Shown here one piece after another: positions 485 through 47,437 of a stretch of DNA of 49,567 bases. The notes under the pieces were generated by a model. It did not search any database. It was not told the DNA's origin and saw nothing but the letters and a program-made list of their open reading frames with translations. The position numbers were made by a program, and so were the translations under genes. Origin of the DNA: Chiloscyllium plagiosum (lineage: Eukaryota); assembly GCF_004010195.1 (NCBI RefSeq), contig NC_057751.1:3906208-3955774 (forward strand), written 5' to 3'. The first letter of the stretch is position 1. Each line of letters starts with the position of its first letter.

Positions 485-632
485 GCAGGCACTCTGCCTC
501 TATTCCTGATGAGGGGCTTTTGCCCGAAACACCGATTTTCCTGCTCCTCGGATGCTGCCTGAATTGCTGTGCTTTTCCAGCACCACTCTAATCCAGAATC
601 TGGTTTCCAGCATCTGCAGTCATTGTTTTTAC
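485..632 (+). mobile_element. Short PLE 3'-end insertion carrying a hammerhead motif (family A)
   Basis: ttc-CTGATGA-ggggc-tttt-gccc-GAAAC at 503-530, followed by the family A tail (ggatgctgcctg...ttttccagcaccac...ccagcatctgcagtc) seen at 1745, 14881, 29936, 43745 and 47146. Confidence 0.85.
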
Positions 633-1744
633 CGAGGAAGTCAATACCAGCACAGTGATTAGGGAACCAGGCTTCAGGAAGATTCACTCTTGATTCCAAC
701 CCTTATGTTTGCACAAGCCCTCGGCAAGACTGAGAATATATACCAGGAAACCACAAAGATTAAAGGTACAGCTTTGGTTCCAGTCTCCTATAAGCAGCAG
801 TTATCACTAACTATTGTAAAAATCTCCGGCCCAAGCTTGATGGGACAGAATTGATTGAGAAAGAATCAACTTGACTGGCTCAATTTTGTTCAATTAGAAA
901 ATGGCTGCCTGACTGAAGTCCTAATAAAATACCCAGACATTTTTCAGGAATCTCTCGGCACTATCAAAGGAGCCAAGTGACCTTACATGTTAATGATGAA
1001 GCAATTCTGCAATGCCCACAACTGCCATTTGCCTTACGTGCAAACATAGCGGCAGGAATCAGGAGGCTGGAAAGCAAAGTAATCATCAAACCAGTACAAT
1101 CTGCAAAATGGGCTAACCATTGAGGATTTTAAGCAAATGGTAAACCACTTCTTGCAGCTGGATAAATACCCAATTCCTCACAGAAAGGATGTGTATGCAA
1201 AAATGGCATGAGGCAGGGAACTGTCCTTTACAAAGCTCGACATTAGCCATGCGTACCTGCAACTACAACTAGATTGACAGTCCCATGTTCAAGATAACCA
1301 TTTGGGGAATTATCAGCCTGCGTCTTTTTCCAGCAGATCATAGAGAACATTTTATAAGGTCTACTCCAGGTTTCCATTTATTTGGATAACTAACAACCGG
1401 GAAGACTAAGAAACTGTACTTGGAGAACTTGGACATACTGCTTATAGAGTTCTCCAAGGCGTACATAGGCCTTAGAAGGGAAAGATGTGTGCTCCAGGCA
1501 CTCAAAGTTACCTTCTTGGGCTACAGAGTTGACAAGACCAGGTTACATCCGTTGGAAGATAAAGTGTGAGTGATCAAATGTGCCCCAGTTCCCACGTCTG
1601 TATTGGAGCTGAGGTCTTTCCTCAGGTTGGTGATTTATTACAGAAAGTTCATGCGCAACCTAGCCTCCATCTTGGCATCCTCAATGATTAGCCTTGAAAA
1701 CAGTCATAGAGCCAAGAAGTAGCCTTTGGGGAAGTGAAATAGCA

Positions 1745-1874
1745 GAAAGTGAGGACTGTAGATGCTGAAGATCAGAGTCAAGAGTGTGGTGCTGGAAACG
1801 CACAGCAGGTCAGGCAGCATCCAAGGAGCAGGAGAATGGACATTTCAGGCATAAGCCCTTCATCAGGAATTCCT
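1745..1874 (-). mobile_element. Short hammerhead-bearing PLE insertion (family A) inside Gypsy pol
   Basis: Reverse copy of the family A tail. Flanked by imperfect direct repeats gaagtgaaatagca (1731-1744) and gaagtgaagtcgca (1875-1888). Confidence 0.85.
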
Positions 1875-3849
1875 GAAGTGAAGTCGCAACTATCGTCATC
1901 TAAGGTGTTGACCAACTATGATCCCATGAGATGTGGTCCTGCCACGTGATGCACCCCCTTACTTCATTGGGGTAGTATTCGCTCACCAGTGGCCCAGTAG
2001 AAAGGAACATCAAATGGCATATTGTTCCTGGACTGTGGCTGATGCCAAATGAAGATATGCCCAGACAGAGAAGGAAGGCTTTACAGTCAGATTTTGGTGA
2101 GAAGGTTCCACCAATATCTTAACAGACGTAAATTAGTTGTAGTAATGGACCACAAATGCCCTATTTGGCTATGCCACCCACAACTTCTAGTCAAATTCAG
2201 CGGTGGGTCCTTATTCTCAGAGCATTCAAGTAGAAGTTGTAACACTGTCCAGGAGGTCAAGTGTCAAATTCAGATGCTTGAGCTGCCTCCTACTGGCATA
2301 TTTATCAGCAGAAGAGGCCGCTCTGGTTTTCAATTTTCAGGATATTCTTCTAGCCACTGCTGACAACATCTGACTGTGGACACAAAGAGATCCCATCCTG
2401 GCAAAATTAAAATAACAGGGCCATCATAACCAACAATGAAACCTTTCTGGATCTAGAGAGACCAGATCACAGTAGAGGGCTGCATATTATTATTAATAAG
2501 AATGATTGTCTCGAGTAAAGGCTACCACCAGATACTGGCTAAATTCCACCAGGGGTATTCCATGGGCATACAAAATGAAGATGTTAGCAGGAAGTTAAGT
2601 CTCGTGGCCAGGACTGGATGCCAACATGGCCATGTTGGTGGAGTAGTGCCCAGAGTGTTATCAAGGACAAGAATTACCACCAGCAGCTCCCACATTCATG
2701 GGAATGGCTGTGTGAATCATGAACAAGGTTTTACATCGACCATGCTGGTCATTTCATGGGCTTCATGTTCCTGGTTCTTGTGGTTACCCATTCAAAGTGG
2801 TTGGACGTGCATTGAGTTCATTCATCAAACTGGGGGATGATGAGTGAAAAGCTGCAGCATCATTCATGATACAATGACTCCTCGAAGTATCAGTCATGGA
2901 CAATAGAATGCCATTTACCAGCAGGATTTCGAGTATTTCCAAAAGTCAAATAGTATTCACAATGTTCGGACAGCTCCATATCATCCATTGTCCACAGGTA
3001 TAAAGGAAAGAAAGTCCAAATGTTGCAGGCAGCCTGAAAGACACAGCTGACAGCTTCATTCAATACCAAACCATCCCAGTTCCTGTTTGATTGTCGGACC
3101 ACCCCTCATGCAAGTACAGGGATTGCTCCAGCAGAATTGCCGATGGGAAGAAGACTCTGTGCCAGGTTAAACGTGATGGACCAAGGTTGGAAGTGAAACC
3201 GTATCAGGAATGCCAATGCCAGTCACATGCTCCTCTAAGCAAGAGAGACAGTTTACTTCAGGGGATGAAGTTTGGCATCAAAACCACAGAAATGGCCCTG
3301 CAAGGGTACAAACTAAGGTTGATGCAAGTCAGGTCCTGTGACATACAAAATTCAGTTGGTTGAGGCGGTCCTGAACGAACATGTGGATCACATGAAAGCT
3401 GCTACCTCACAAATAGATCAGAAGCAAAACATATCCAGCCTCTTAGAACAGCCCGAAAGCTGTCAGAAACAGTGGGTTCTCCCCCTCCATCTATCGAAGA
3501 AATCTTCAAGTCCAAGACGGATGCAGCCGATGTCGCAACCCTAACACCATTACCGCCTGAAGAGGAAGAATTTCTTCTCACACGCTCCAGATGCAAGAGA
3601 TGCATTACGATCCAGTGCAGACCAACTCTGTCCAAGTCAGAGTCGGAAGAATCAGACCTGGGATCAAAACATCCCATGAGAAGCTACAATAAAAATAATA
3701 GGCCATATTTCTCAACTTCAGTGGGAAAGGGAGGGACTGACTGCAATGAAATTGGCTCGGTAGGTCTCATTGACGAGGAGTTCCCTAATTGGGGCTGTTA
3801 CCCTGAGCCAATCAGGGAGTCCTGGCTGATAGATATCAAGAGGAGTCCA

Positions 3850-4212
3850 CCCTCCCCTTCACTGTTTGATCACACAGCAGTGCCCTTTGACGTGAAGGGC
3901 ACTGCTTGTCACTGGCCACTTGGGTGTTTCCTTTCTTCCTGGTGGTGGAAATTGAATAAAGATTCGTACACCTTGTGTCTCACACCTGCACACACACAAC
4001 ATGGGTGCTGGGGAAAAAAATAAGCACTACCGCAGTTAGGCGGGAGTGTGGGGGTTAGCAGTAAAAAAGAAAAAAATCAAGAGGAGTCCACCCTCCCCTT
4101 CACTGTTTGATCACACAGCATTGCCCTTTGATGTGAAGGGTACTGCTTGTCACTGACCACTTGGGTGTTTCCTTCCTTCCTGATGGTGGAAATTTGAATA
4201 AAGAAAAAACAA
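3850..4212 (+). mobile_element. Two tandem poly(A)-tailed non-LTR retroelement 3' ends (possibly L1/Tx1-like) inserted in the Gypsy LTR
   Basis: 15-bp direct repeat atcaagaggagtcca at 3835-3849, 4076-4090 and 4213-4227. Both units start ccctccccttcactg, contain a hairpin (agcagtgccctt/aagggcactgct) and AATAAA, and end in A-rich tails. Confidence 0.7.
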
Positions 4213-4349
4213 ATCAAGAGGAGTCCATGGAGTTCTCCTCACTCTGTGAACTGGCTCTCAGTTAGCTTGTCAGAGTCCACCTACTGTGCAGGTATAAATA
4301 AAGGGTGACTTGCTGATGGGATCCAGCATCTGTGGACTTACTCCACTTC

Positions 4350-4723
4350 GTTAGAGTTAAAAGCTGCTGCTGCTGTTGGAATTACATGTTAGACAAGGTA
4401 TCTTAGTGAATTTATCTTTACCAAGTATATGTTATGGGATGTGACTACATTGGAACAGTTAATTAGCATTAATATTTTGATATTTCAATATAGTATGCAT
4501 TTCAATATTGTTAGCATTAAGCCAATTCTTTTGTTTTTATTTTGTCTGCACTTTGATTATAGTGTAAAATTAAAGTATGTTTTGTTTAAAATTGAGTAGT
4601 TTGACCAATCAAATTACATCGAGAACATAATGCCTTACACTTACCTTTTTTAAAGAAAGAAAATGTTCGGGTCGAGACTATCTTTTAATTTGTATTTTGC
4701 AGGGTTCAGTCTGGTCCATAACA
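4350..4723 (+). mobile_element. 3' portion of an LTR-like repeat
   Basis: Ends ...ggtccataaca, the same ..CATAACA terminus as the solo LTR ending at 13099. AT-rich U5-like composition. Confidence 0.45.
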
Positions 4724-5599: not shown

Positions 5600-5840
5600 T
5601 TTTTCTTTGAGAGGGCTGAGTCTTTGGAATATCTTGCCCACGGAGTAGCGAAGGCAGAGTCCTTACGTATACTTAAGGCTGAGATAAATAAATTCTTGAT
5701 CAGTTCGGGGTTCAAGGGTGATGGGGAAGGGACAGGAAAGTAATTTTGAGAAAGGTGTCAGATCAGCCATGTTCCTTTTCAATTGCACAGCACGCTCAAG
5801 GGCCCGAACAGCCTCTCCTGTTCGCCTATTTCTTATGAAA
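5600..5840 (+). mobile_element. CR1-type LINE 3' fragment
   Basis: Resembles the other CR1 3' ends in the window (ttaaggctgagata...gatcagccatg...ctcaagggcccgaa...cctatttcttatg). Confidence 0.7.
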
Positions 5841-8116: not shown

Positions 8117-8431
8117 AACATTCAAACTAAATGTGGCTGGCAGATGGATCTGCCTTGCAAGTCCACAAATTGCCCTGGAAAATCCACCTGGGGTGGGGGT
8201 GATTACTTGTCTCTGTTTGGTACACATGTTGGGAAGTTGAATACAGGGAAAGAGAGAAGAGCTGCTCCTCTAATTCTCTGCTATACCTTCTGCTGTAGAT
8301 GGCACACTTCAACTAAAACTGGATCAGGACCCATCTTTAGACGAAGCTGGTATTGGACCTCACTTTTGCCGAGGTTGGGATCGAAATCTACCTTCGGTGG
8401 AGGTCAGGAACTCCATCTCCAGTGACAGACT

Positions 8432-9171
8432 TGTTATGAAGGCGTAAGGGGTACTGTACCTTTAAGAGAGTTAAAAGCTAGCAGAAGTACCTGACACAGC
8501 ACCAAGTGTTCTGAACAAGGTAACAATGTAACATGTGGTCGAACAGTTAGATTAGCTGGATTGCCTGGAGACAAAAAAAAATCAAATTCAGCCAATCAGT
8601 TTAAATTATGCCCCAAAATGCCAAATTCCAATCAGGTTTGAATTTAGTATTTTGACAATATTAACACCAATAAAACAATCCAATTCATTGGGGTATAAAA
8701 CAGAAACAAAATTGAACAGTTGGAGGAGAACTGCCCAAAGACCAACAGATGTAGGCTGCTCGTCAGAACTCTCTGAGAGATACCTGTCGAGAGAAGGAGT
8801 TTGCACACAGAAAAAAACATTGACACTGACCTGAAGAGCAAATCTACAGAAGAAGGTACAAAGAGAAGATTCAACAGCTGGCTGATTTTGAAACGTGAAT
8901 CTTTCAGTAAGTCTTAGTCAGGGGGGTTTGATTGGATTAGTATTGTAGAGGGGAAGGTCAAAGATAAGTTAGAGAAAGGAGTTATAAATAGTTGTGAATT
9001 AATTATTCTCTGTTAGACTTTAAAAAATAAAATTGTTAATTTTTACTTTAAATAGTGACCTTTGGAAATAGTTCCTTGCCTCTCGAATTTTAACTGATTA
9101 CAGCAATGGGTTAAATCATTTCTGTGTTGCAGGTTTAAATTATCTGGGGGGGGTTACCCCATCTCAGAACA
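8432..9171 (+). mobile_element. Solo LTR
   Basis: TGTTATGA...TCAGAACA termini and gact TSD (8428-8431 / 9172-9175). CCAAT boxes at 8592, 8628, 8667 and 8680; TATAAAA at 8694; AATAAA at ~9027. Homologous along its length to 11374-13099. Confidence 0.85.
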
Positions 9172-9261: not shown

Positions 9262-9372
9262 CTCATCTAAAGAGTCACACTAGACTCAAAACAGTAACTC
9301 TGTTTCTTTCTCCACAGATGCTAGCACACCTGCTGAGCTTCTTCAGCAATTTCTGCATTTGTAACAGATTTG
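9262..9372 (+). mobile_element. Decayed PLE 3'-end with degenerate hammerhead (family B-like)
   Basis: ctaaagagtcacactagactcaaaacagtaactctg...tctccacagatgct...cctgctgag, similar to 25126-25262. Confidence 0.6.
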
Positions 9373-9624: not shown

Positions 9625-9880
9625 CACAAAATCAGCCCATTGAGCCTGCACCCACCCTCTAAAATGCATCCTACCCAGACCCACCCCATGCCCATAACCC
9701 CACATTTACCATGGTTAATCTGAGCCTGCACAACCTGTGGATATTATGGAGCAATTTAGCTTGGCCAATCCACCTAACTGGCACAACTTTGATTTGTGGG
9801 AGGAAACCGGAGCACCTGGCGGAAACCCATACAGACAAGGGGAGAACATGCAAACACCACACAGTCATCCAAGGCTGGAG
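9625..9880 (-). mobile_element. HE1-type SINE, partial
   Basis: Reverse complement matches the body of the copy at 38184-38505. Confidence 0.8.
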
Positions 9881-10689
9881 TATCTTAGCTATGATGAGTG
9901 TTGATAGATATGATAGATAGAATGATAGATACAGTTATTATTACTAATTTACTGTTCCAATATAGTAAAATCCCATAAACACACCCTTGCCAAAAAGGCA
10001 AATTCAGATAACAGATTGTCTCACATGCAGTTCTCCAATCCAAGAGGCAAAACACATCGTAAGACAACTTTGACAGAGCAAGTGCAGCAGCCAGAAGAAA
10101 TTCATTGCCTTCCAACTTGCTGAACAACTGCTGAAAGCTAACGTAATTCAGGATCTCCAAGAGTTGACCACACCCACTCAGGCTGCTTCTATTGTTCCAA
10201 CTTTCAAAAAAACCCAAGGCCTAACAAATTGTTTATCTTATTATAGACTGCTTGTTATCTGTTCCCCCAATCTCTGTCTGAAACACATCTCTTCAAGCTG
10301 CAGCATTGATTTCTTTCTGAACATGTGACAATGTCTTGACTAAATAATACGTAGGATTTTCTAAACCACAAACAATACTTCAAAGCAGTTCTGTCCTTAT
10401 CTGCATACTTGAAAGGAATGATGGATACAATGAAATTTTCATGATGGAGATCATCCTCTTCTTTTCTTTCAAAGGAGCCTGTTGCCAACTCAGAGCAAGG
10501 TTAATCTCACTTAGGTATTTTTACAGATAGCTCTGTTTCTTTGTCCTCTCGTCAACTTAATTTCTCCTTGCAGCTTTGCAATGATGAGAAAATGCTGATC
10601 TCTATTCAGCCTCCCTGAGGATCATCACGCCAATAGCCTTCAAATAAACGTCAAGTCACCATCGCCTGACCATACCAACAAGCTGCTAT

Positions 10690-10852: not shown

Positions 10853-11636
10853 ATCTTTCAAATAGGCAGAGCAGGTAGAGCAATTGCACAAAGTAATCAG
10901 GAAAACTAATACATTGTTCTAATGAATAATGAGAGGAATTTAATACATAAGTGAAGATGTGTTTCGATTATACAAGGCATTGGTAAAAGCCTTATTAGAG
11001 TACAATGCACAGCAAGTGTTACCTTCCTTAAGAAAGTAAATGTATTAGAAACAGCTCAGAGAAGGATTAGCAGACCAATATCTGGAGTGAAGAGAAATTG
11101 AATAGGGTCAGCTTGTATCTGTTGAAGTTTAAAAGAATAAGAGCTGACTTAACTGAAATGTAAGAAATTCTGAGAGTTCTTGACAGAGTAGATGTGGAGA
11201 GGATATTTCCTCATATGGTAGGATCTAGAATTAGGTTATTGCTCATAATCAGGGATCACCCATTTAAAACAAAAACAATTGATTTTCTCTTTTAAGTTCA
11301 TGAGTCTTAGGAGCTTTTTCCTGAAAAGATGGGTGAAACAGGCTCCTTGAGTATTCGTCAGGCAAAGACAGATTGTTATGAAGATGTAGGTATATCTTTA
11401 AGAGAATTAAAAGCAGCAGAACTACCGGACAACAGCACCAAGTGTTCTCAATAAGGTGACAATGTTACACTGGGTCAAACTACTCGATTAGTTTGTTACT
11501 TGGAGACAAAAACAAATTTGAATTCAGCCAATCAGTTTAAATTATACTCGAAACATAACAAACTCCAATCAAGTTTGAATTGAGTATACTGACAATCTTA
11601 AAAGCCAATGACACAATCCGATACTTTGCAGTATAA

Positions 11637-12657
11637 CAGACGTTTTGTCCCCTGTCTAGGTGACATCCTCAGTGCTTGGGAGCCTCCTGTGAAGCGCTTC
11701 TGTGATGTTTCCTCCGGCATTTATAGTGGCCTGTCTCTGCCGCTTCCGGTTGTCAGTTCCAGCTGTCCGCTGTAGTAACCGGTATATTGGGTCCAGGTCG
11801 ATGTGTTTGTTGATCGAGTCTGTGGATGAGTGCCATGCCTCCAGGAATTCCCTGGCTGTTCTCTGTTTGGCTTGCCCTATAATGGTAGTGTTGTCCCAAT
11901 CGAATTCATGTTGCTTGTCATCTGCGTGTGTGGCTAAGGATAGCTGGTCGTGTCGTTTCATGGCTAGTTGGTGTTCATGAATGCGGATCATTAGCTGTCT
12001 TCCTGTTTGTCCTATGTAGTGTTTTATGCAGTCCTTGCACGGGATTTTGTACACTACATTGGTTTTGCTCATGCTGGGTATCAGGTCCTTCGTTCTGGTG
12101 AGTTGTTGTCTGAGAGTGGCTGTTGGTTTGTGTGCTGTTATGAGTCCTCGTGGTCGCAGTAGTCTGGCTGTCAGTTCGGATGTATGGTAGTGTGGCTAAT
12201 CCTTTGGGTTGCGGCATGTCCTCGTTCTGTTGGACAACCATGGCATCCATGAACACCAACTAGCCACGAAACGACACAAACAGCTATCCTTAGTAGCCAC
12301 ACACGCAGATGACAAGCAACATGAATTCGACTAGGACAACACTACTATTATAGGACAAGCCAATCAGAGAACAGCCAGGGAATTCCTAGAGGCGTGGCAT
12401 TCATCCACAGATTCAATCAATAAGCACATCGACCTGGACCCAATATATCGGCAACTGCAATGGACGGCTGGAACTGACAACCGGAAGCAGCAGATACAAA
12501 TCACTATAAATGCCGGAGGAAACATCACAGAAGCGCTTCACAGGAGGCTCCCAAGCACTGAGGATGTCACCTAGACAGGGGACGAAACATCTCTACGCAA
12601 ATTCCCAGCTCGGCAAACAACAACGAGCACCCGAGCTACAAATCTTCTCACAAACTC
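11637..12657. mobile_element. Poseidon-like PLE insertion with inverted arms (minus arm 11637-~12235, plus arm ~12243-12657)
   Basis: Minus ORF 11656-12072 is a GIY-YIG endonuclease (NVVYKIPCKDC..HYIGQTGR.L..RIHEH). The plus arm repeats the 3' part inverted. Flanking duplication tgcagtataa at 11627-11636 and 12658-12667. Confidence 0.9.
12555..12594 (+). ncRNA. Minimal hammerhead ribozyme motif (Poseidon family)
   Basis: gca-CTGAGGA-t-gtcacct-agac-aggggac-GAAAC-atc. A mirror copy lies on the minus strand at ~11637-11675, with GAAA mutated. Confidence 0.75.
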
Positions 12658-14880
12658 TGCAGTATAAGACCAGGGAAAATCAAACAGTTGGGAGGACAAC
12701 TGCCAAGGCCCAGCGCGTAAACAGATGCTTGAAAACAGCTCTCTCTTAAAAGTCCCTTTTCGATCAGTAACCTGCAATGCAGTATTTCCTAACAAGGAGA
12801 AAAGACGACACAGGAAGATCCAAAGACAAGAACCTATTGCTGCCTGGTTTTGAGATAAGAAATGTTGTTTTGTAAATTTTAATTGGGAGTTTTATCGGAC
12901 TAGTATTATAGAAGAGAAGCTAAAAGATAGGTTAGAGAAAGAAATTGTAAATAGTGGTCAGTTAATTATTCTCTGTTGTACTTTAAGAAATAAAGTTGTT
13001 AATTTTTACTTTAAATCGTTCTTGGCCACTTGATTTTTAACTACACAGGATAAATCCTTGCTTTAACTTGAGCAGGAGGGTTTACCCTGTGTCATAACAC
13101 AGATAGATTCTTAATAAGCAAGGGGTAGGCAGGAATGTGGTTAAGAGGTATCAGATCAGCCCGGATCTTATTGAATGACGGAGCAGGCTCAAGTGGATGA
13201 AGAGCCTCCTCCTGCTCTTTGCTTGTATGTTTGACTGGAAATATCTGAGCTTTGAAGACACACTTACTCTCCAGTAATTGTTCAGTGATTGTTATAATAC
13301 GCCATAAGCTATCAAATAATGGAAGGGGGTTACACTAAACTGAAAACATCAAAGCACAAAATTAAGGCACTGGAATTCCTGGCATCCAATTTGTAAATGG
13401 CAAGAGCAAGAAAACATGTCTTAGCTATTCATTTCTCCACCAGGAGAAATTTTATTCAATTCAAACTGCATGGAGATGGGAAAGCAGGTCAGCCTCCAAC
13501 TTTTGAAGAAAATTCATCTCTCAATGAACTAATTCAACCAATATATAATATGATACTGTACAGGTTGCTTGGATGGATCAAGACCTAAGTCACAGGGGAC
13601 AGGTTGGACTAAGTTGGAGCTTAATCTGCAAGGAAACTATAATTGAATTTGGAGCGCAAAATTCAGTGAGTGACGTTTCTATCATTAAGGTTAACAAGTT
13701 TAAGTATTTCCAGGCCCCTCAGACTGAACCATGTCATGGTGCAGCCATTTCATTGTGCACTTTCTCCTTTCAAGAGAAAGCACTCTCACCTCCCTGTGCT
13801 CAGTTAAAGATAAGATCGCAGAAAGTAATTGCTTAAGGGTCACTTGAAAAGATTGATTTTCCTCTGACACAGAATTTCAATATTACTGCTTTGCTCAATG
13901 ACATTTTCTGAAGCAAACAGTCCAATGGAGTATCCACTTTTTGAAAAAAAAATGTGTGCTCTGGCCCACCAAATCTTCTCATTTGCATTCCAGAACTTTG
14001 CATGTTACCCTGCAAAGAACAGTGGTTTATTTTCAAATGTAAGTATTTGTTTCAAAAAATATTATCTTAGTCATACATGACTAATAGCCTGGAGAAATCA
14101 TCCTTTTCTTGTGTTCATTCAAGGTATGTGGCTATCTCTGGCTGCACCTGCATTTATTGCCCATCAAATAATTCACCTTGAAAAGTTTGTGGTGATCTGC
14201 CCTCCTGAACTGTTGCAGTTCATTAGGTACACCTACAGAAGCACTCAAAACTCAAGGAGGCTAGGATATAGGGAGGTGACTTGGGGGCAAAACATTGGTT
14301 GCAGAACACAAGGGAGGTGAGAGAGAAAGGTGGTTGCTCCAGTTCGAAAGTGAGATGGAGGCTGCAAAGGCAGAGAAGAGAGATGGATGGTGCAAAAGAA
14401 AGAGAGAACAGTTTCAGATCTTTCAACAAAGGAACACTCAGTTAAGTTGGAGTTAGGAAATCTTGAAATCACAAAGGTAATGAACTCATTCCAAATGAAT
14501 GTGCTATTGACATCTTAAAGTTGCGCAAGTTCAGGAATTAGTCTTTGGGGAAGAACTTAGTGGATGCAATTGTTATGAACACCACACCAAGTGTCAAATT
14601 TAAATTTGAAATGCAGTAAATAGGGAAGTGAATGTCTCATTAAAATGATTCAGCTCTGTATTTGTGATGGAAACACATTAGCTGTGACCTTACCAGTCCA
14701 TGGAAGATACGTCTAAGGTCATAGTTTTATACGTGCAGAAATACGTGCAGCTTTTTTTCAAAAATTCACAAACTTATGTCTGTTGTCTTGTGCCATTTTA
14801 AAAATTGTAGTATCAAGAAAATTATTCCTTTCCTTTATGTGTTATAGTTTTAAGCTCAATGGAGTTGATAATTATTGAGG

Positions 14881-14979
14881 AGAAAGTGAGGTCTGCAGAT
14901 GCTGGAGATCAGAGATGGAAATGTGTTGCTGGAACAGGAGAATCGACGTTTCGGGCATTAGCCCTTCTTCAGGAAATTA
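14881..14979 (-). mobile_element. ~100-bp hammerhead-bearing PLE mini-insertion (family A)
   Basis: Intact core on the minus strand (ttc-CTGAAGA-agggc-taat-gccc-GAAAC-GTC, 14941-14976) with an internal deletion. Perfect 16-bp TSD ttgataattattgagg at 14865-14880 and 14980-14995. Confidence 0.9.
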
Positions 14980-16129: not shown

Positions 16130-17060
16130 TATTAAATCATGACGTGTGTCACTATCTAAAACAGCATTTACTGCCCGTGAGAGTCAATTGTTTTCTTATG
16201 GGTCTGGAGTCAATTGTGGGTGCGAACAGGTAAGAATGGCAGATCGAGCATAAACACAAGGAAGTGATGCTGCACCCCTACCAATCATTAGTCAGACTAC
16301 ACTTGGTTTAATGTGTTCATTTCTGGGCATCTTACTTAAGAAAGATTGTCAAAGCCCTGGAGAGAGTGCAAAAGAGATTTACTAGACGATACCAGAAATG
16401 AGGGATTTTTGATACATAGAAAGACAATAGAAATTCGTCTTAATCTCCTTGGAGCAGAGAGGATTAAGAGGTGACCTCACTGAGTTGTTCAAAATTATGA
16501 ACAACGTTGACACTGTAAAGACGCATATTCTGCTTCCAGCTAGTTGGTATGTCACAATTTCATAACTGCCAGCAAGAGGGCCAGGAATGAGATGGGGAGA
16601 AACTTCTTCACTCAGAGAGTTGTTCAAATTTGGAATCCACTGTCTGGGAGAGTGATGGAAGTGGATTCCATCGGAGATTTCAAAAGAGAGCTGGATATTT
16701 GTTGAAAGATGTGTTTTGAGGGCTTTGGAGATATGGCTGGAGAACAGGAATATCTGGTCGGCATGGACGGGTTGGACCGAAGGGTCTGTTTCCATGCTGT
16801 ACATCTCTATGACTCTTTGACTCTACGGTACAGACACAATGAGTCAAAAGGCCTCCTTCTACACTGTCAAATTCTATGATTCGATTTCCTTCCCTGAAGG
16901 ACATTCGTGAACCAAATAAGTTTTCTTTCACAGCTGACAATGGTTTCTTAATTGCCATTATGCTCATTACTTATTTCATATATTTTGTTGAATTCACGTA
17001 TGCACCACGGTGGGATTTGAACCCATGTCCCCAGAACATAGGCCCAGGGTTCTGAATTAC
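16130..17060. mobile_element. Minus-strand tRNA-headed SINE split by a plus-strand CR1 fragment (~16245-16880)
   Basis: SINE sequence aggtaagaatggcagat resumes as ttccttccctgaagga after the CR1. The CR1 shows LERVQKRFTR.IP. The same SINE family occurs at ~18700-19065. Confidence 0.7.
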
Positions 17061-19065: not shown

Positions 19066-19786
19066 CCCAAAATTCAATTTATCCTAATTACTTGTCTGCT
19101 TCAAGTGAAGATGCAATTTCTTACTGTCGTTGCTGGTAAAGCTGTTCCTGCAACACTTTCAGGCCTTCAAGATCCAAACTTGCTGCATTATAAAAAACTC
19201 ACCTCTGCTTCTTTTGCCAATGCTCTTTGTTGTGTATCCTCCAGTTATTGGCTGTTGCACCCTATTCATTTCATCAGCACATGCGAACAATGGCAGGACA
19301 AGGTTTGATTCACCCCACCACAGATGTTATCATCTGTCCTACGATGCTCAAGAAATTATTTCACAAGAGTTGTGTTGCAGGAACAAGTAAATGCTTCTCC
19401 CTCTGGTGTTTCCATAGATACAGCTGAGGTATTCTAAGTTACAGGGTTAGAAGCTGCAGGAACATCCATTTCACTCCACACAGTATGACTCATTTTATAT
19501 GCAGTAAACATAAGCCTGGGAATATCCACTTAAAGGAGAGAAGATGCACACAAACAGTCAGAAAACATCATGTGAAATACATAGTGTTACTGAGATTGAG
19601 CAGAGCTGGCAGCAGTAGAGCTACAGAATCAAGGATTCTGACAGCCCCATTATTTCTGTTTGTCCCTGTCCTGTGGAAGCTATTCTTCCTATCTTGACTT
19701 GATGTTTTCTCCCCTGTCCAATCATTCCCCAGTGCATCTGTGATTCTTTGACGCTTTATGTTGGTTTCAAAAATTTACAAAGTCAA

Positions 19787-20305
19787 ATGTGTGGTGCTGG
19801 AAAAGGTCAGCAGGTCATGCAGCACCCGAAGACCAGGAGAATCACTGTTTCGGGCATCAGCCCTTCATCAGAAATTTCCAGTTTGCAGGCAGCAGCTGCC
19901 TCCTCTTTACCAGGGAAATGCAGCTCCATCCCCCATCAGGATTGTCTCAGGCATCCCCATTTCTTCCTGGAAAGAAAGCCTGAAGCACGTCCATATACTA
20001 CTACTTCCTCCAGCTGGCTGAGCTTGTCCTCGGTTTGACCAACTTCTCCTTCAGCTCATCTCACTTTCTGAAACATGTGGCCATGGGTACCCACTTATGT
20101 TCATCTCTTTGTGGGGTATGTGGAACATTCATTGTTCCAATCTTCCCCAGGCCCTACCCCTTAATACTTTCTCCAGTACATCAATGGTATTGCTGATGCT
20201 ACTTCCCTCCCTCGTTTTGAACTGGTAAAATTTATCAATTTTTTTTCCAGTTTCACCAGTAGTATGTTTTGTTTCAGGTCTCCAGCATCTGCAGTTCTCT
20301 GTTTT
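19787..20305. mobile_element. Family A hammerhead mini-element (minus, 19787-19876) joined to a decayed plus-strand PLE RT fragment
   Basis: Minus strand CTGATGA-agggc-tgat-gccc-GAAAC. Downstream plus-strand NFSF, VAMGT and LFVGYVEHSLF remnants, then a tccagcatctgcag tail. Confidence 0.7.
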
Positions 20306-21583
20306 ATGTGATTGAATCAAATGCTGATTGGTAACAGGTTTAGGGCAGCACCACCCTAAGACTGCCAACCCACCACGATTGCCTTGGTTGTCTAGGAATT
20401 CAGGACTAATGGATGGTCACTGGCATGGAGTAAAGAGTTAATTCCATCTTTAATAACAGCAACCTGAGCCATGCACAAGGCACCATGTTTTGGTGATGTC
20501 AGATGACATGGAATTGGAAACTGAATCTGCAACATTCCGAAAGCCATCTCTTCTTATTCCTAGCGTTTCATTACATTCATAAAACTAATTAATGTTCAAT
20601 CATCTGAGCGCAAAAGTGAACTTACAGCTTGGTGAAATCAAGGAGAAACAATAAAAGGAGAACATTTCTCCGTTTTATTTTCATTTTCTTTATCAATTGT
20701 AGAAATATGTTAGATGGAGAAAAAGGGCTGCTTGACTGTCAGGGAGGGAGAATTGAGTTTTGGTCAGGTGATGAAATCTCCTCTCCAACAAGAGTTTGCA
20801 GCCCAGGTTTCACAAAGTACAAGATGCCACATTTCTAGGATTGTCAATTTCTCAAATCCATTGACACTGTGCAAAACAGGAACATGCAGAAATTCACTGA
20901 AACTGAACTATTCAGGCGGTCTAGTTCCCCACAATAGGCTAGTATCTGTTCAGCCTGCAGTGCGTTCTTTGATAATGTCAATATCACGCAGTTAGCAGCA
21001 CATAATGTGATCTTTCATTAGGACTAAGGAACAAAAATAGGCTGTTCCATCATTCAGGTTAAAATTGTGATCTCAACATATCTGTCCTCAGAGATCAACA
21101 CAAATTTGTACCGTACCAGAAGAATTTCAACCCAAATAATCCCCAATCCTTCACAGAACTGCAATTTGTGTGCATCTCTGCAACATCTTTAACTGAATGC
21201 AGAGCATGCCCCAATGTTTTTCTATTTCAAATTGCATAACACATGCAAACACACATCTATATTGCTGCTACACCACAGTGGAACATCACTCCTATCACAA
21301 TTAGTTGTCCTTATTTTAAAGTCACAGAAAAATATAGTGGCAACAAAGAACATGCATTAAAAATCAATAAATATTCAATTAGGTGGAACTTATGGCAAAA
21401 GGTTTCTTGAAACCCACTGAGGAAGCATTCATTCTTTGAACAAGCCAGATTGGCAGTAATTCTACAATTGAGCATTAAATGTATCTCAGCTATCAGATAT
21501 ACTGACAGTACTGACAATATAAACTTCTCACGACAGTCAATTGCGAAGTACAACTGAACAGGCAGAAAAAGCCATTTAAAAAG

Positions 21584-21835
21584 GGTGACACAATGGCTCA
21601 GTGGTTAGCACTGCGGCCACACAGCACCAGAGGCCCGGGTTCGATTCCAGCCTCAGGCAACTGTCTGTGTGGAGTTTACACATTCTCCCCGTGCCTGTGC
21701 GGGTGTGCTCCAGTTTCCTTCCACAATCCAAACGATATGCAGGTTAGGTGAATTAGCCATGCTAAATTGCCCATAATGTTCAGGGATGTATAGTTTAGGT
21801 GCCAGAGTCGGGGTAAATGAAGGGGAATGGGTCTG
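21584..21835 (+). mobile_element. HE1-type SINE, 3'-truncated
   Basis: A box tggctcagtgg, B box gggttcgattcc, body matching 38184-38505. Confidence 0.85.
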
Positions 21836-24980: not shown

Positions 24981-25125
24981 ACTGTCCCAATCAAGTTGAA
25001 GACGACATGATATGATTCACTGCTATCAAAAGAAGCATTCCTCCAAAGTGTAATCAGTCACTTAAGGTGATCTGGCCCCAATCTATTTGAGAACTGCCAG
25101 TCTCTGACACACTTCCGAGCTACTG

Positions 25126-25262
25126 TCAGTTCTGAGGAAGGCTCACTGAACCCGAAATGTTAATTCTGATTTCTCTCCACAAATGCTGCCAGACCTGCTG
25201 AGCTTTTCCAGCAATTTCTGTTTTTGTTTCTGATTTTCAGCATCCACAATTTCAATTTTTAT
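25126..25262 (+). mobile_element. Short hammerhead-bearing PLE 3'-end (family B)
   Basis: cagtt-CTGAGGA-aggctc-actg-aaccc-GAAA-tgtt-aatt, then tctccacaaatgctgccagacctgctgag. Confidence 0.8.
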
Positions 25263-26625: not shown

Positions 26626-28690
26626 TTGAATATTACATCGCCTCAATTGGCCTGCCCCCTCACCCATTCCAAACTATCTCCCTCTAAACTGACTGCACTC
26701 TGTGCCCTCAGATCCAATCCGAACTTGGTAATCAAGCCTACTGACAAGAGTGGTGCTGTTGCTATCTGTCATATTGACTTCAACATTGAAGAGGTTGAGC
26801 GCCAGCTCTCATATCTCCTCCCATCTCCCCATGGACCATGACTCCACTATGAAACACAAGGCCAATGTGTCCACAACGGTTACTAATCTTCTTTCACCCA
26901 GTGATCTCCCCTCCAGTGTCACCAAGCACAAAGTCTTCTACCTCCTTCTCAAAATACACAAATCAGACTGACCAGGCAGACCCATTGCTTCTGCCTCTTC
27001 TTGCCTCACAGAACTCATCTGTTCCTACCTGGACTCAATTTTTCTCCCTTCTCCTGTCCCTTCCCACTCTCATGTGTGATTTTTCTAATGCCATATCTCA
27101 GGTTCAAAATTTCTAGTCCCCCTATTTACCATGGACATGCAAGCCCTTTGCAAGTCCATTCCCCGTTAGGATTGTCTCACTTTCTCGGTTTCTTTTGGAA
27201 ACCATCCCCGTCCATCACTAGCCTCCTCTGCCTGGCTGAGCTCATCCTCAATTTTAACAACTCTTTTAACACCACCCACTTACTTCAGATATAAGGTGTG
27301 CCATGGGGACACGTGGATCCCAGTTACGTCTGACTCTTTGTCAGGGGTACATGGAACATTCCTCAGTCCTCAGTCACGTCCGACCCATCTCCCGTACTTT
27401 GGCCCTCAGTCTTTCTCTTCCCTCCCACAATAGCGATAGGATCCTCCTTGTCCTCACCTACCATCTCACTAGCACCCGCATTCAAAGGATCATTAGCTGC
27501 CATTTGTGCCACCTCCAGCAGAATGCCACTACCAGATGTATATTCCCCTCTCTTCCCTTGTCAGCCTTCCTCAGGGACCATTCCTCCAGGGTACCTCGGT
27601 CCTTTTTTTCTCCAATCCCGATATCTCCCCACAGCGCCTTCCCATGCAATCACAGAATATTTAACACCTGCCGATTTACTTCCCCACTCCTCATTATCCA
27701 GGGCCCCAGACATATCTTCTAGGTGAAGCACTGGTTTACCTGCACTTCACGCAATCTTGTCACTGTATTCAATGCTCACAATGCGGTCTCCTTTACACTG
27801 GCGAGACGAAATGCAGACTAGCCAACCACTTCACAGAACACCTACACTCTGTCTGCAAAAATTATCCTGAGCTTCCAGCTGCCTGTCATTTCAGTGAATC
27901 TCTGTGTTCACTGGCCAACATCGTGCTACAGTGTTCCGGTGAAGCTTAGCGCAAGCGGAAGAACAACATCTCATTTTCTGGCGGTGAAACCCTGTAACTC
28001 TCTGGAGTCAACCTCATGTTCAATAATCTTTAGGGTCTTAGCATGTTCTCTCATGTCCTTACCCCAACCTCTATACACCAGGTCTTGTACTCACATGGGC
28101 TGCTTCCACAAACAACCCATTTTCAGCCACTGACACTCCCCATTAGCTGCTAATCATTCGACCAAACTGGCCTTTACCCACCCCTTTGTCTGTCCAGTTT
28201 TTTTTTTCTCTCTCTCTCTGGGTTCCATCTCCATCTATCATTTCATCTCCCCCTTTCCCTTACCCCTTCTTTGGCATTTAGGTATTAAGTCTGCTTTTTC
28301 TCCACAAATTAGATTACTTATAGTGTGGAAACAGGCCCTTCGGCCCAACAAGTCCACACTGACCCACCGAAGCACAACCCACCCAGACCCATTCCTACAT
28401 TTACCCCTTCACCTAACACTACGGGCAATTTAGCATGGCCAATTCACCTAACCTGCACATTTTTTTTGTGGACTATGGGAGGAAACCTGAGCACCCAGAG
28501 GAAACCGACACAGACACGGGGAGAATGTGCAAATTCCACACAGTCAGTCGCCTGAGGCGGGAATTGAACCCGGGTCTAAGGCAGCAGTGCTAACCACTGC
28601 GCCACCGTGCCACCCACAATAGGTCAAACCTACTGAGTTTTTCCAGTAATTTCTGATTTTGTTTCTGATTTCCATAGTTATTTGTTTTGT
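26626..28690 (+). mobile_element. Decayed Neptune-like PLE (RT, Cys-rich linker, GIY-YIG), internally deleted and split by a SINE
   Basis: LRSNPNLVIKPTDKSGAV (PLE DKG motif), FYLLLKIHK, G..MGT, FPCN...NTC linker, C.QCGLLY.GETK.RL..HF.EH (~27770-27840). A family B tail resumes at 28620-28690. Confidence 0.85.
28306..28617 (-). mobile_element. HE1-type SINE, near full length
   Basis: Reverse complement of 38184-38505, including the tRNA head and taatc tail. Confidence 0.9.
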
Positions 28691-29935
28691 TTTTAATTGA
28701 ATCTGTATTTAGTTTAAGGAAGTGAGGAATGGGTCTAAAGGTCGTATTTTAAATGTATATAAGGTTAATTCCGAGGACATGAAGGAGAGCGAGCTAAAAT
28801 GAACTTGTAAATTAGATTAAGGGTTAGGTCATATGCAGAAGTAAGTACAAGAGAAAGCTGGCTACAAATTTTAAAATGGATAAGAGTTTCTATTGCCATT
28901 TAAAAAAGGGAAAGAGTCAATAAAGTGAACACGGGTCCGATAGAAATTGAGTCTGCAGAATTAAGAATGGAAAAAACGATGACAAATCAAACAAGTATTT
29001 TTCACCAGTCTTAAATGTAGAGGTTACATGCATAACATCCTAGAATTGGCTGTAAATCATAAAATAAAAGACAGGAACTAAAGAAAATTACAAATATTCA
29101 CTCATATTACAGGGCAGTTACCTTAAAATCCATCACAGGGAAAATATTTTGTGAAAGGGAAATTCAGGATAACTCATCCATAAGAGCTCCTTGAAGAAGT
29201 AACCTGTGTTGTGGATAGAGGATATCCAGTGCATGTACTGTACCTACACTGCTTCAAGGTATTTCATAACCCACAAGCTTCTTTTGAAATTCATCATATG
29301 TTAGGCCTACCATTCCAGGGATCATCTGTGTGAAGCTTCGCTGGACAGGTTCCAGTGCCACTATGTCCCTCCTGAGGTGTGGGGCCCAAAACTGGAACAC
29401 TATGTTTTAAATGGGGCCTAACTGAAGCTTTATAAAGTCTCAGAAGCGCAATGCTGCTTTTATATCCTAACCCTCTTGAGATAAATAACAACATTACATT
29501 CACTTTCTTAATCATGGACTCAACCTGCAAGTTACTCTTGAGAGAAGCCTGGACTAGCACTCCCAGATCCTTTTGTACTTCGGCTTTATGAATTATCTCA
29601 CCATTTGGAAAATAGTCCATGCCTGTATTCTTTTTCCCAAAGTGCAAGACCTCATATTTGCTCACATTGAATTTCATCAGCCATTTCCTGGACCACTCTC
29701 CTAAACTGTCTGAATCTTTCTGCAACCTCCCCATCTCCTCAGTACTACCTGCCTGTCCACCTCACTTTGTATCATTGGCAAACTTAGCCAGAATGCTCCC
29801 AGTCCCTTCATCCAGATCATTTAATATATAAAGTGAACAGCTACAACTCCAACACTCAACCCTGCAGGACCCCACTTGTCACCAGCTGCCATTCTGAATA
29901 AGAACCTTTTATCCCAAGTCTCTGCCTTCTGTCAG

Positions 29936-30147
29936 GTCAGGCAGCATCCAGGGAACAGGAGATTCGACGTTTCGGGCACAGGCCCTTCTTCAGGAATGAG
30001 CAGAGAGTGTTCAGCAGGAGAAGATAAAAGGTAGGGAGGAGGAACTTGGAGGAGGGGCGTTGGAAATGTGATAGGTGGAAAGAGGTAAAGTGTTCCAGCA
30101 ATAAAGTTTCAACTTTGATCTCCAGCATCTGCAGACCTCACTTTCTC
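29936..30147. mobile_element. 5'-inverted hammerhead-bearing PLE insertion (family A)
   Basis: Perfect 16-bp TSD ctctgccttctgtcag (29920-29935, 30148-30163). Minus arm 29936-~30089, plus arm 30091-30147. Confidence 0.9.
29962..29997 (-). ncRNA. Best-preserved minimal hammerhead ribozyme
   Basis: Minus strand: attc-CTGAAGA-a-gggc-ctgt-gccc-GAAAC-GTC-gaat. Perfect 4-bp stem I and 4-bp stem II, loop-less palindromic ACGT stem III, GUC site. Confidence 0.8.
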
Positions 30148-30869
30148 CTCTGCCTTCTGTCAGACAGCCAATCTTCAGTCCATGCCAGTAACTCACCTCG
30201 AACACCATGGGCCCTCACCTCACTCCGCAGCCTCCCGTGCGGCACCTTATCAAAAGCTTTTTGGAAGTCTGGATGGTTTCCCTGGACTTACCTATTTGTT
30301 CCCTCTTCAAAGAATTCTAAAAGATTTGTCAGGCATGACCTCCCCTTACTTAATCCATGCTGACTTGTTCTAATCTGACCCAGCACTTCCAAGAATTTAG
30401 AAATCTCATCCTTAACAATGGATTGCAGAATTTTACCAACGACCAAGATTAGGCTAATCAGCCCATATTTTCCCATCTTTTGTCTTAGTCCTTTGAACAA
30501 TAGACAACAGGTGCAGGAATAGGCCATTCTGCCCTTCGAGCCAGCACTACCATTCATTATGATCATGGCTGATCATCCTCAATCAGTATCCTGTTCCTGC
30601 CTTATCCCCATAACTCTTGATTCCATTGTCCCTAAGTCTCTTGAAAGTATCCAGAGACTTGGCCTCCATAGCCTTCTGGGGCAGAACATTCCATACACCC
30701 ACCACTCTCTGGGTGAAGAAGTTTCTCCTCAACTCTGTTCTAAGTGGCCTACCCTTTATTTTTAAACTGTGTCCTCTGGTTCAGGACTCACCCATCAGCT
30801 GAAACATGCTTCCTGCCTCCAGATCCTTTATTAATCTTACACAAGGGGGTTACAACAGCGATTTTCCAA

Positions 30870-32389: not shown

Positions 32390-32484
32390 CCTGTTCCTCG
32401 GATGCTGCCTGAACTGCTGTGCTTTTCCAGCACCACTCTAATCCAGAATCTAGTTTCTAGCGTCTGTAGTCATTGTTTTTACCT
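32390..32484 (+). mobile_element. Family A PLE tail lacking the hammerhead core
   Basis: Nearly identical to 540-632. Confidence 0.8.
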
Positions 32485-32839: not shown

Positions 32840-32966
32840 AAAGGAAGTACTGCAGATGCTAGAGATCTGAAACAAAACAGAAATTGCTGGCAAAACTCAG
32901 CAGATCTGATAGCGTCTGTGGGAAGAAAGCAGAGTTAATGTTTTGAAAGCACTGGCTCTTCATCAC
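32840..32966 (-). mobile_element. Family B PLE 3'-end with degenerate hammerhead
   Basis: Reverse complement begins tgatgaagagccagtgctttcaaaacattaactctg, followed by the family B tail. Confidence 0.7.
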
Positions 32967-34584: not shown

Positions 34585-34785
34585 AAAAAGCAATAGCTGG
34601 ATAAACTCAGCAGATCTAGCAGCATCTGTCAAAAGAAAGCAGAGTCAACGTTTTCGGTCCACTGACCCTTCTTCTGTTCTCAAGTAGCATTGCTGGACTG
34701 AAATACTGACTCTGCTTTCTTTCCACAGATGCTGTCAGACATGCTGAGTTTCTCCAGGTATTTCTGTTTTTGTGTCAAATTCCAT
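34585..34785. repeat. Head-to-head palindromic pair of family B hammerhead elements
   Basis: Left arm aaactcagcagatctagcagcatctg...aaagcagagtcaacgttttcggtcc is inverted relative to right arm ggactgaaatactgactctgctttc...cagatgctgtcagacatgctgagttt. Confidence 0.75.
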
Positions 34786-38183: not shown

Positions 38184-38505
38184 GTGGGTGGCACGGTGGC
38201 ACAGTGGTTAGCACTGCTGCCTCACAGCGCCAGAGACCCGGGTTCAATTCCCGCCTCAGGCGACTGACTGTGTGGAGTTTGCACATTCTCCCCGTGTCTG
38301 CGTGGGTTTCCTCCGGGTGCTCCGGTTTCCTCCCACAGTCCAAAGATGTGCAGGTCAGGTGAATTGGCCATGCTAAATTGTCCGTAGTGTTAGGTAAGGG
38401 GTAAATGTAGGGGTATGGGTGGTTTGCGCTTCGGCGGGTCGGTGTGGACTTGTTGGGCCGAAGGGCCTGTTTCCACACTGTAAAGTAATCTAATCTAATC
38501 TAATC
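38184..38505 (+). mobile_element. Full-length, young HE1-type SINE
   Basis: A box tggcacagtgg, B box gggttcaattcc, V-domain-like body, LINE-derived tail gggccgaagggcctgtttccacactgt plus (TAATC)4. CpGs retained. Confidence 0.93.
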
Positions 38506-41959: not shown

Positions 41960-42295
41960 ATCATAGAATTATAGAATCCCTACAGTGTGGAAACAGGCTA
42001 TTTGGCCCAACAAGACCACACCGACCCTCCGAAGAGTTCCGAAACCAGACATATTCCAATACCCTATTACTCTACATTTCCCCTAACTGACACATCCCTG
42101 AACACTGTGGGCAATTTAGCATGGCCAATTCACCTAACTTACACACCTTTGGACTGTGGGAGGAAACCAGAGTACCCAGAGGAAACCCACACAGACATGA
42201 GGAGAATGTGCAAAGTCCACACAGTCACCCAAGGCTGGAGTCGAACCTGGGTCCCTGGCGTTGTTGGGCAGCTATTGCTAACCACTGAACCACCC
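41960..42295 (-). mobile_element. HE1-type SINE
   Basis: Reverse-complement match to 38184-38505, with an atagaat-type tail. Confidence 0.85.
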
Positions 42296-43744: not shown

Positions 43745-43883
43745 TGAGAGTGGAAAAGCAAGTAGGTCAGGCAGCGTTCCAGGAGCAGGACAATCGACGT
43801 TTCGGGCAACAGCCCTTCATCAAGAAATCCAGCACCTTACTCTTGACTCTGATCTCCAGCATCTACAGTCCTCACTTTCTCTT
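43745..43883. mobile_element. 139-bp 5'-inverted family A hammerhead element
   Basis: Perfect 14-bp TSD agatccctgaaggt (43731-43744, 43884-43897). Minus arm to ~43827, then plus arm tccagcacc...ctcactttctc. Confidence 0.9.
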
Positions 43884-44104
43884 AGATCCCTGAAGGTGTC
43901 AGCACAGGTAGATCGCGTGATGATGAAGGCATATGGGGTGCTTGCCTTCATTAAGGGCGTAGAATACAGAAGCATGGAAGTTTTGTTGCAACTTTATGAA
44001 GCATTCTTTAGGCCACAGATGAAATATTGTATGCCGTTCTGGTCGCCATACTGTTGCAAGAATGCGATTGCACTGGAGAGGGTGTACAGGAGATTCTCCA
44101 TAAT

Positions 44105-44240
44105 GGTTCTGAAGAAGAATCACTGGACCCGAAAGGTTAACTCCATTTTGTCTCCACAGCTGTTGCCTGACCTGCTGAGTTTTCCAGCAATTTCCAATTT
44201 TGTTTCTCATTTCCAGCATCTGCCGTTCTTTGGTTTTTTT
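44105..44240 (+). mobile_element. Family B hammerhead mini-element
   Basis: ggtt-CTGAAGA-agaatc-actg-gaccc-GAAA-ggtt-aact plus the family B tail; interrupts the CR1 at RRF. Confidence 0.8.
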
Positions 44241-45959: not shown

Positions 45960-46750
45960 GGCAGAGTGCTGGTGTTGGACTAGGGTGGACCAAGTTAAAA
46001 ATCACACACCAGGTTATCGTCTAACTGGTTTATTTGCAAGTACAAGCTTTCGAAGAGCTGCTCTTATGTCATGTAGCTTGTGGGGCAGGATCAGTGGTCA
46101 CAGAATTTACTGTAAAACATACAACATAGTGTCATACAACTTGAACAAACAAAGATTGCTTTTAAGTCTTTAATCACTCAGAATGGGGATGCAGGTTTTG
46201 ATTGATTAATATGTAAACCCCAGAACTTCTTTCAAGTCACAGTCCCGAGATAACTTAAGGTTTTTAAAAAAAGTGCCATCTCAACTCAGACAATGCATTA
46301 AAAGTGGAAGGTTAGAGTCTGTCTTTACTCCAATCTTGAGTTAGACTTGTTTTATTTCCAAAGTAGGAATATATAAAATGTCACATAGAGTGACTGCTTA
46401 CAGATTGTATGCTTTTTGAACAAAATAGAATATATCTGCAAATGCAAATCTGCAAATTCACCCCATAGACTTCTGTGTGTGTGTGTTTGTATGTGTGTGG
46501 GAGAGAGAGAAAAAAAGTGTGTGTGTGTCTGTGCGCTTGATAGAATGTGCATGCAAGTGTGGCCCAGTATATACCTGTTAGAGGGTGTGCGTGTGAGTTT
46601 GAGTATATATGTGTCTGAGAGAGGGTCTGTGCGAGTATGATCATGCACAAGAGTGTGTGTGTATATGTGCTTGTGTTTAAGTTGTGTGTGTTTATAGTGT
46701 CGTGGGGTCCCTTGTAGTATAACATGAACCCAAGATCCCTGTTGAGGCCA
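45960..46750 (-). mobile_element. 3' end of a further PLE family (C) with (CA)n-rich 3' UTR and degenerate hammerhead
   Basis: Minus strand starts GLNRDLGFM..Y (a typical end of a PLE GIY-YIG ORF), has a low-complexity tract at 46470-46700, then ..atgacataagagcagctcttcGAAAgcttgt. Confidence 0.7.
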
Positions 46751-47145
46751 TATAAGCTACGCAGTCTGCGCTACTGTCATCAGACACATCTCAACTCAAA
46801 AAATTCAACCAGACATATTAGGCATGACCTCTGACAAAGTCATGTTGATTACCCCTGATCAAACCTTTCCTCTCCAAATAGAGATTAATTCTCTCCCTCA
46901 GAATTTTTGTGTAAACTTTCCAAAACACTGGTCTATAGTTCCATGGTCTATCCCTCCCACTGTTCTTCAAAGGTGGAACCACATGAGATGACTGATGACT
47001 GGAAGCTCTCCCATTTCAGGACCCCTGTGATTTCCTCCCACAGCAACTCGATTAAATTAATTCAGACCTGGAGTTATGTCTACTTTGAAACCTGCTAAAA
47101 TCTCCACTACCTGCTCACTTCCAATGAGAGACTGCTCAAGATCCT

Positions 47146-47437
47146 ATTCTGGATCAGTGGTGCTGGAAGAGCACAGCAATTCAGGCAGCATTCGACGAGC
47201 AGCAAAATCGACGTTTCGGGCAAAAGCCCTTCATCAGGAATAAAGGCAGAGAGCCTGAAGCGTGGAGAGATAAGCTAGAGGAGGGTGGGGGTGGGGAGAA
47301 AGTAGCATAGAGTACAATAGGTGAGTGGGGGAGGAGATGAAGGTGATAGGTCAGGGAGGAGAGGGTGGAGTGGATAGGTGGAAAAGGAGCTAGGCAGGTC
47401 GGACAAGTCCGGACAAGTCCAGGGGACAGTGCGGAGC
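47146..47437 (-). mobile_element. Family A PLE 3' region with intact hammerhead core (47206-47241)
   Basis: Minus strand attc-CTGATGA-agggc-tttt-gccc-GAAAC-GTC-gatt, preceded by a ~190-nt pyrimidine-rich 3' UTR. Confidence 0.88.

Follow-up and report, generated by a model that had tools for sequence, protein, structure and literature searches.

Why do so many short copies of a transposable element begin within a few nucleotides of a ribozyme core? The question is raised by a stretch of 49,567 nt from Chiloscyllium plagiosum (assembly GCF_004010195.1, contig NC_057751.1, positions 3,906,208 to 3,955,774; the window), which sits in a 3.56-Gb genome with repeats of shark-like appearance and holds dispersed, non-coding copies of the tails of Penelope-like elements (PLEs) with hammerhead ribozyme motifs. 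The copies fall into two families, A and B, which by their sequence are the pseudo-long terminal repeat (pLTR) and 5' untranslated region (5' UTR) ends of Neptune-type PLEs. The best explanation, which we regard as likely, is that the short copies are direct Neptune insertions in which cDNA primed internally, at about +90 or +126, ran off at the 5' end of the RNA, probably a capped start at position -4. In the numbering used here 0 is the C of CUGANGA; cleavage is predicted before +28, and the zone counted for it is +27 to +30.

The distribution of 5' ends was studied in 24 blocks of 50 kb taken at round coordinates (1,166,167 non-N bases, 1.166 Mb), which makes them an arbitrary, not a random, sample. 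Copies in this blind sample were anchored only via their 3' part (+49 to +128). The 312 anchors gave 243 alignments with a score of at least 60, and 225 arms were retained after duplicates and arms ending before +70 or starting after +50 had been dropped. Copy extents were taken by reference mapping; pairwise extents were abandoned because they are confounded by inverted pairs. A 5' end at -6 to -2 was found in 74 of the 225 arms where 2.7 were expected (family A, 54 against 1.85; family B, 20 against 0.88), and at least one such end was present in 22 of the 23 blocks that contained copies. The hazard per nucleotide in this zone was 0.105 in A and 0.129 in B, on backgrounds of 0.0047 and 0.008, and was still 0.079 and 0.090 when only non-inverted copies were considered. 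The mode was -4 in every well-sampled subfamily (A1, A2, A3 and B1), a position occupied by an A that is the first base of stem I. The peak is therefore real, sharp and genome-wide, as the preliminary description of the window had anticipated when it proposed plotting the 5' ends, and does not reflect smooth truncation. Extrapolation from the arbitrary blocks gives about 690,000 arms and about 225,000 peak ends in the genome.

At the predicted cleavage site the ends in the blind sample were at background (A, 3 against 2.9 expected; B, 3 against 1.6), and a peak sought at +27 to +30 was not found in larger sets (7 of 348 A ends, 4 of 121 B ends). Three apparent junctions at +28/+29 were reduced to one after inspection. 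The earlier statement that the boundary lies upstream of the core and that self-cleavage does not explain it thus holds. A missing subfamily as the source of the boundary was also rejected, since the flanks of 86 peak copies were unrelated to each other (0 similar pairs) and did not resemble pLTR (C+T content 0.505 against 0.65-0.85 in pLTR). Among 25 copies bearing an open reading frame (ORF), 10 reached +5 and 5 of those 10 ended at -11 to +2, as expected for run-off from the same RNA end. Template-switch junctions in A1 cluster at -74 to -79 (8 arms; L012, L002, L196, L018, L217, L197, L202), perhaps marking a second RNA end, in a sample biased by ORF-based searches.

A Poseidon-type PLE with its own hammerhead served as control. 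Twenty-eight young copies were found by their 3' part, nine of them cut by N gaps beyond -50; 22 reached -1 and none of these 22 ended at -6 to -2, as did none of nine Poseidon-type arms in the blind sample. This implies that neither the method nor a hammerhead as such creates the peak. Six Poseidon-type 5' ends lie at -140 to -160 (L294, L304, L311 and three blind-sample arms), a weak hint of a start site there. The control bears on a proposal of the preliminary description, that reverse transcriptase (RT) may be programmed to stop or switch at the ribozyme fold, here taken to lie within a longer RNA. The hazard in A is indeed already elevated at +1 to +10 (0.016 per nt), and many inverted and template-switch junctions occur in this zone. 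However, RT would approach from the 3' side and reach the fold at about +32 and +21, two positions at which the hazard equals background; by the time it stands at -4 the fold has been unwound; some 40% of the A arms that reach 0 continue past -12 (42 of 113); and the Poseidon hammerhead has no peak. We regard a stop of this kind as very improbable. An RNA template with its own end at -4 is a more plausible reading, and hammerhead-cleaved RNA would therefore seldom have been the template in these families.

The base before the boundary was examined by genome-wide searches with exact patterns, and the listed matches were counted by hand without a check for target-site duplications (TSDs). A2 matches with the reference C at -5 numbered 23,393 (about 78 of the first 100 listed were long), and those with another base there 6477 and 6965 by two patterns. 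For position +54, used as control, there were 150 A2 matches with a non-reference base, obtained with a pattern that requires one additional non-C and uses another anchor than the -5 pattern. A G was present at -5 in 55 of the first 100 matches listed, against 22 of the first 100 control matches listed (P=2.6e-6), and at -6 in 28 of 100 listed; another listing gave 60 of 100 at -5, covering largely the same places, all on one contig. After removal by eye of 56 fold-back or duplicate rows and of 35 mutant control rows the figures were 21 of 44 against 16 of 65 (P=0.015). Family B had G at -5 in 37 of 93 (all rows; P=0.008 against the control). Besides, YYANWYY is the initiator consensus, and in 6 of 7 references an initiator-like match places its A at -4. 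In L1 and SVA an extra untemplated 5' G is attributed to the cap (PMC3287187). Because of the G excess before -4 and the initiator-like motif there, the A at -4 is probably the capped transcription start of the element's own RNA, a start site inferred from insertions and not observed in RNA.

Several points weigh against such a start. RT is able to add a C at the end of any template, capped or uncapped. In fetched loci the extra G was absent or weak, with no excess over an upstream control (18 of 68 at the peak, 9 of 35 upstream). YYANWYY occurs 3-5 times per reference without peaks, and is not at -4 in B2; moreover, pairing in stem I likewise constrains the A at -4. Another set of A1 ends, at -8, starts on C and is preceded by G in 7 of 7, two of them explained by the partner arm. 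Public RNA runs did not show a pile of molecule starts (one of two raw runs gave no aligned reads at all), in libraries whose 5'-end type is not established and from organisms not shown to be C. plagiosum. Finally, the start of Penelope in D. virilis is not at the helix itself but precedes by 46 bp an intron whose end is at Helix I (PMC2377424, PMC4209133). Depth steps and loose ends near -4 in runs from other organisms were set aside and not counted as support, being confounded by subfamilies that diverge there. The A1 ends at -8 are all preceded by AG (L010, L016, L025, L192, L219) and may mark an alternative start on a pyrimidine.

An uncapped end at the same base could be left by RNA decay, if a 5'-to-3' exonuclease were halted at the first base of a protein-bound hammerhead and RT then added a non-templated C on run-off. 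In both families the boundary is the first base of stem I despite their differing stems, and the Anolis hammerhead was cleaved only when protein was added (PMC11167929). Yet the similar hammerhead of the Poseidon-type element is without a peak, stem I is just 2-4 bp and folds weakly alone, and an excess of a single G fits a cap better. Decay up to the hammerhead is therefore considered unlikely.

The 3' ends were bimodal, lying in the 225 blind-sample arms either at about +90 to +97 (107 arms, short) or at about +124 to +130 (118 arms, long); both were shared by short and long copies. They match the two internal RT starts of an Anolis PLE, which define its tail in vitro without a need for cleavage (PMC11167929). 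Among 136 inverted, head-to-head events 115 had both arms within -60; 107 of these could be classed, and 98 combined a long with a short 3' end. The blind blocks alone contained 54 inverted events, with the long-plus-short pairing in 45 of 48. Microhomology was present at 41 of 64 junctions (arms starting at -12 to -3), and a TSD score of at least 9 in 16 of 33 non-inverted A peak copies. The two arms of an inverted pair span the same stretch of RNA and hence are not the result of simple L1-type twin priming; two RNAs or strand displacement would be needed.

It was also considered that the 5' end is made at the DNA level or by splicing, through a GIY-YIG endonuclease cut at ATT, a 3' splice site or antisense self-priming. 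In favour are the preference of the Anolis enzyme for ATT within the pLTR of its element (PMC11167929), a YAG at -2 in family B, and the proposal of antisense self-priming for head-to-head copies (PMC3846280). But family B has AGT and not ATT at -4, and ATT at +29 and at -36/-38 is without a peak; the splice acceptors of family A are at -17, -23 and -25, and no upstream exon is shared; and non-inverted copies have the same peak. These origins are very improbable.

Run-off of internally primed cDNA at the RNA end might proceed as follows. RNA polymerase II would start at the initiator-like motif, on the A at -4, and the PLE protein would bind two RT start sites about 94 and 130 nt downstream of the RNA 5' end. 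It would nick the target and RT would copy to the cap, the extra G being a putative copy of the m7G (7-methylguanosine) cap. Copies passing -6 may have been primed at the same sites within the 3' pLTR or may result from a template jump; priming in the 3' pLTR would give long, randomly truncated copies. In inverted pairs both ends of the cut target would be primed, one per site, and the cDNAs joined via 1-4 nt of microhomology. More tentatively, the Neptune PLEs of this genome may start capped at the first hammerhead base, so that the ribozyme would be a 5'-terminal decapping switch; a dimeric RT might prime both target ends in a coupled manner, one per site; and the approximately 200,000 insertions might form a fossil CAGE (cap analysis of gene expression) map in which only uncleaved RNA was copied. 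We consider this wider scheme possible, though doubtful.

The preliminary description had also suggested a SINE- or retrozyme-like non-autonomous unit (SINE, short interspersed element) mobilized by PLE enzymes. The corresponding rival is an independent element, transcribed by itself and re-mobilized by the PLE protein. Short copies would indeed retain the start site and both RT starts. On a tree of 211 rows, 109 of them short and 102 long, which used 92 columns and left 147 of its 200 forks open, the short/long label required 56 changes, whereas shuffled labels averaged 69.7 and none of 500 shuffles was as low, which indicates some clustering. The nearest neighbour of a short A1 copy was also short with a frequency of 0.55, the share of short copies being 0.36. 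However, no short-only clade was present on this tree, three sets of identical rows contained both short and long copies, and short-short identity was about equal to short-long identity. Nearest-neighbour clustering was absent in A2 (0.58 against 0.59) and A3 (0.70 against 0.71), and the A1 locus sample is biased by ORF-based searches. The clustering follows the short/long ratios of the subfamilies, with a mild residue in A1. An own lineage with private mutations was thus not borne out by the interleaved tree, in which most forks are open, or by the identities. Head-to-tail arms were absent from the 225 of the blind sample and from the window, and 531 neighbours included three of mixed family. 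As to an own short or circular transcript, no starts or circles could be read from the public RNA runs. Single contigs in two of these runs join +83, +89 or +125, 3' ends of the unit, back to about -3/-4 (L090:8563-8692), and are either genomic partial tandems or circles. An independent unit is, all in all, quite improbable: the short copies are likely by-products of internal priming, and not a new SINE or element class.

Young elements were retrieved by searching with the ORF start. Those of A1 are about 3-3.8 kb long and have the hammerhead-tail at both ends, before the ORF start and about 3-3.8 kb after it (partial tandem pLTRs). The single ORF encodes RT plus, C-terminally, a GIY-YIG endonuclease (EN), the motifs of which are present in locus L195. 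In broken copies Pfam recognized RVT_1 (E=5e-4) and GIY-YIG (E=7e-3), both weaker than the curated cut-offs, and in four window fragments nothing. In line with an assignment to Neptune, a CX2-5CxxC linker was found about 640-670 nt upstream of the core in five of six long copies (three B, A1 and A2; not in the A3 copy), and this linker between RT and EN is a mark of Neptune/Nematis (PMC8557442). All references contain the parts of a minimal type I hammerhead (CUGANGA, stem II, GAAA, NUH and a short stem I that covaries), in agreement with the earlier description; the strict core pattern was matched by just 30 of 106 arms. The comparison with Rfam proposed there returned nothing for a hammerhead in the window (threshold E<=1), and the motif call is one of sequence inspection. 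In A1 derivatives with internal deletions the sequence often departs from the ORF at about +285 to +294 and continues in the 3' pLTR (L163, L180, L196, L197, L198), an exit partly forced by the query end at about +283.

The element type is known; what is new is the sharp 5' boundary with its extra G as a handle on mechanism. EN+ PLEs of the Neptune clade as described in PMC8557442 and PMC3846280 resemble those studied here in ORF layout, CX2-5CxxC linker, partial tandems and inverted 5' copy, and also in a tail at one end only (an optional 30-40 bp), variable TSDs and heavy 5' truncation. Truncation there is high or variable, whereas here one-third of the ends are concentrated within 5 nt and come with an extra G, and the asymmetry of the tails is quantified. 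The Anolis Poseidon element PAc in vitro (PMC11167929) likewise has two internal RT starts that set the tail, with both strands cut and extended. It belongs to another clade, and neither the RNA 5' end nor a 5' junction peak is dealt with in the parts of that paper examined; its two strands use the same start sites, whereas a genomic pair in the present data almost always combines long with short. Published type I hammerheads of PLE pLTRs (PMC4209133) share the core, the extra base before stem II and a palindromic minimal stem III, and are mostly single motifs from truncated PLEs, with opposite-strand pairs; cleavage and circularization of the template were proposed there, but no excess of ends at the cleavage site was seen here. 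Non-LTR retrozymes (bioRxiv 10.64898/2026.07.22.740005) are also PLE pLTR-derived and non-coding, with a type I hammerhead, and exist as dispersed monomers too; they are defined by tandem hammerhead units, which are lacking here together with an independent lineage. Full-length L1 and SVA insertions (PMC3287187) have an extra G at a fixed 5' boundary as well, and microhomology at other junctions, but their cDNA covers the whole RNA, whereas internal priming near the 5' end would give the 94- and 130-nt products found here. No report of the 5' peak was found in the literature covered, most subscription papers lying outside it, and Repbase and Dfam models were not compared. The role of the PLE hammerhead and the transposition cycle are stated to be open in PMC8557442 and PMC11167929. 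Against this background the insertions offer a start site that is precise and open to testing for a Neptune element of a vertebrate, argue that the usual template in families A and B was neither cleaved nor circular RNA, and constrain by the long-plus-short rule how two RT starts are used in vivo, while a very abundant repeat class is explained as by-products.

The copies in the window, with positions counted from its first letter, are as follows.

1..406, plus strand: 3' end of a PLE of Poseidon type, with the end of the endonuclease and a minimal hammerhead of its own (core 296), a separate family, used as control.
483..633, plus strand: Neptune A1 copy, 5' end -23, long 3' end +128, core 506, 11-bp TSD 463/635 plus 7 extra nt.
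1740..1870, minus strand: A3 copy that begins at -4 and has a long 3' end; its core is at 1866, and the 5' junction carries a short fold-back.
9262..9362, plus strand: old copy of family B with a short 3' end and, near 9267, a degenerate core; alignment from +12.
14879..14975, minus strand: A2 copy that begins at -3 and has a long 3' end, with about 32 nt deleted internally; 16-bp TSD 14865/14980.
19778..19875, minus strand: A3 copy that spans -4 to +95 (short 3' end) and has no clear TSD.
25113..25255, plus strand: B1 copy, 5' end -19, long 3' end, core 25132.
27368..28674, plus strand: long Neptune copy of family B that holds the end of the ORF and the pLTR (to 28247), is interrupted by another repeat at 28308-28617 and has a remnant of the tail at 28625-28674.
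29933..30150: head-to-head pair of A5; its minus arm (29933-30090) extends to about -97 and its plus arm (30091-30150) runs from +67 to +127; 16-bp TSD 29920/30148.
32390..32484, plus strand: A1 copy truncated at +34, without hammerhead core, 13-bp TSD 32376/32489.
32845..32966, minus strand: old B1 copy, degenerate core 32966, long 3' end, alignment from +28.
34585..34781: family B head-to-head pair, minus arm 34585-34674 starting at +2.
43747..43884: head-to-head pair of family A; its minus arm (43747-43826) begins at -3 and has a short 3' end, and its plus arm (43828-43884) runs from +70 to +128; 14-bp TSD 43731/43884.
44106..44236, plus strand: B1 copy, 5' end -3 with a G before it, long 3' end, core 44109.
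47146..47442, minus strand: A1 copy that includes pLTR as far as -195 and has the short 3' end, at +94; core 47237.

All 11 copies listed in the preliminary description exist, and the copy at 32390 was absent from it. Its claim that the boundary lies close to the core applied to eight of the 11: six had a measured 5' end from -4 to +2 (1870, 14975, 19875, 43826, 44106 and 34674), and the two copies entered at 9262 and 32840, which have degenerate cores and alignments that begin only at +12 and +28, extend to about 0 when judged by eye. The copies at 483 and 25113 and the arm 29933-30090 were off the boundary. The entries at 29936, 34585 and 43745 had been taken for single units and are in fact head-to-head inverted pairs. 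The three perfect TSDs reported (two of 16 bp, one of 14 bp) were exact, and those of 11 and 13 bp are additional.

Other repeats were also present in the window. The A1 copy at 483 was inserted into a fragment at 406-473 that resembles the ORF end of a second Poseidon-like family. A large head-to-head Poseidon-type insertion occupies 11637-12659 (arms 11637-12232 and 12243-12659), and older, broken Poseidon-like RT and endonuclease remnants lie at 48203-49279 on the minus strand. A SINE-like repeat of about 310 bp recurs at 28308-28617, where it interrupts the long family B element, and at 38184-38494, 41972-42294, 21583-21789 and 9743-9881. A tRNA-like T-arm at 17009-17047 (weak tmRNA match) is probably the head of a SINE, and an unidentified repeat is present at 8424-8698 and 11367-11636 as two 275-bp copies that are 80% alike.

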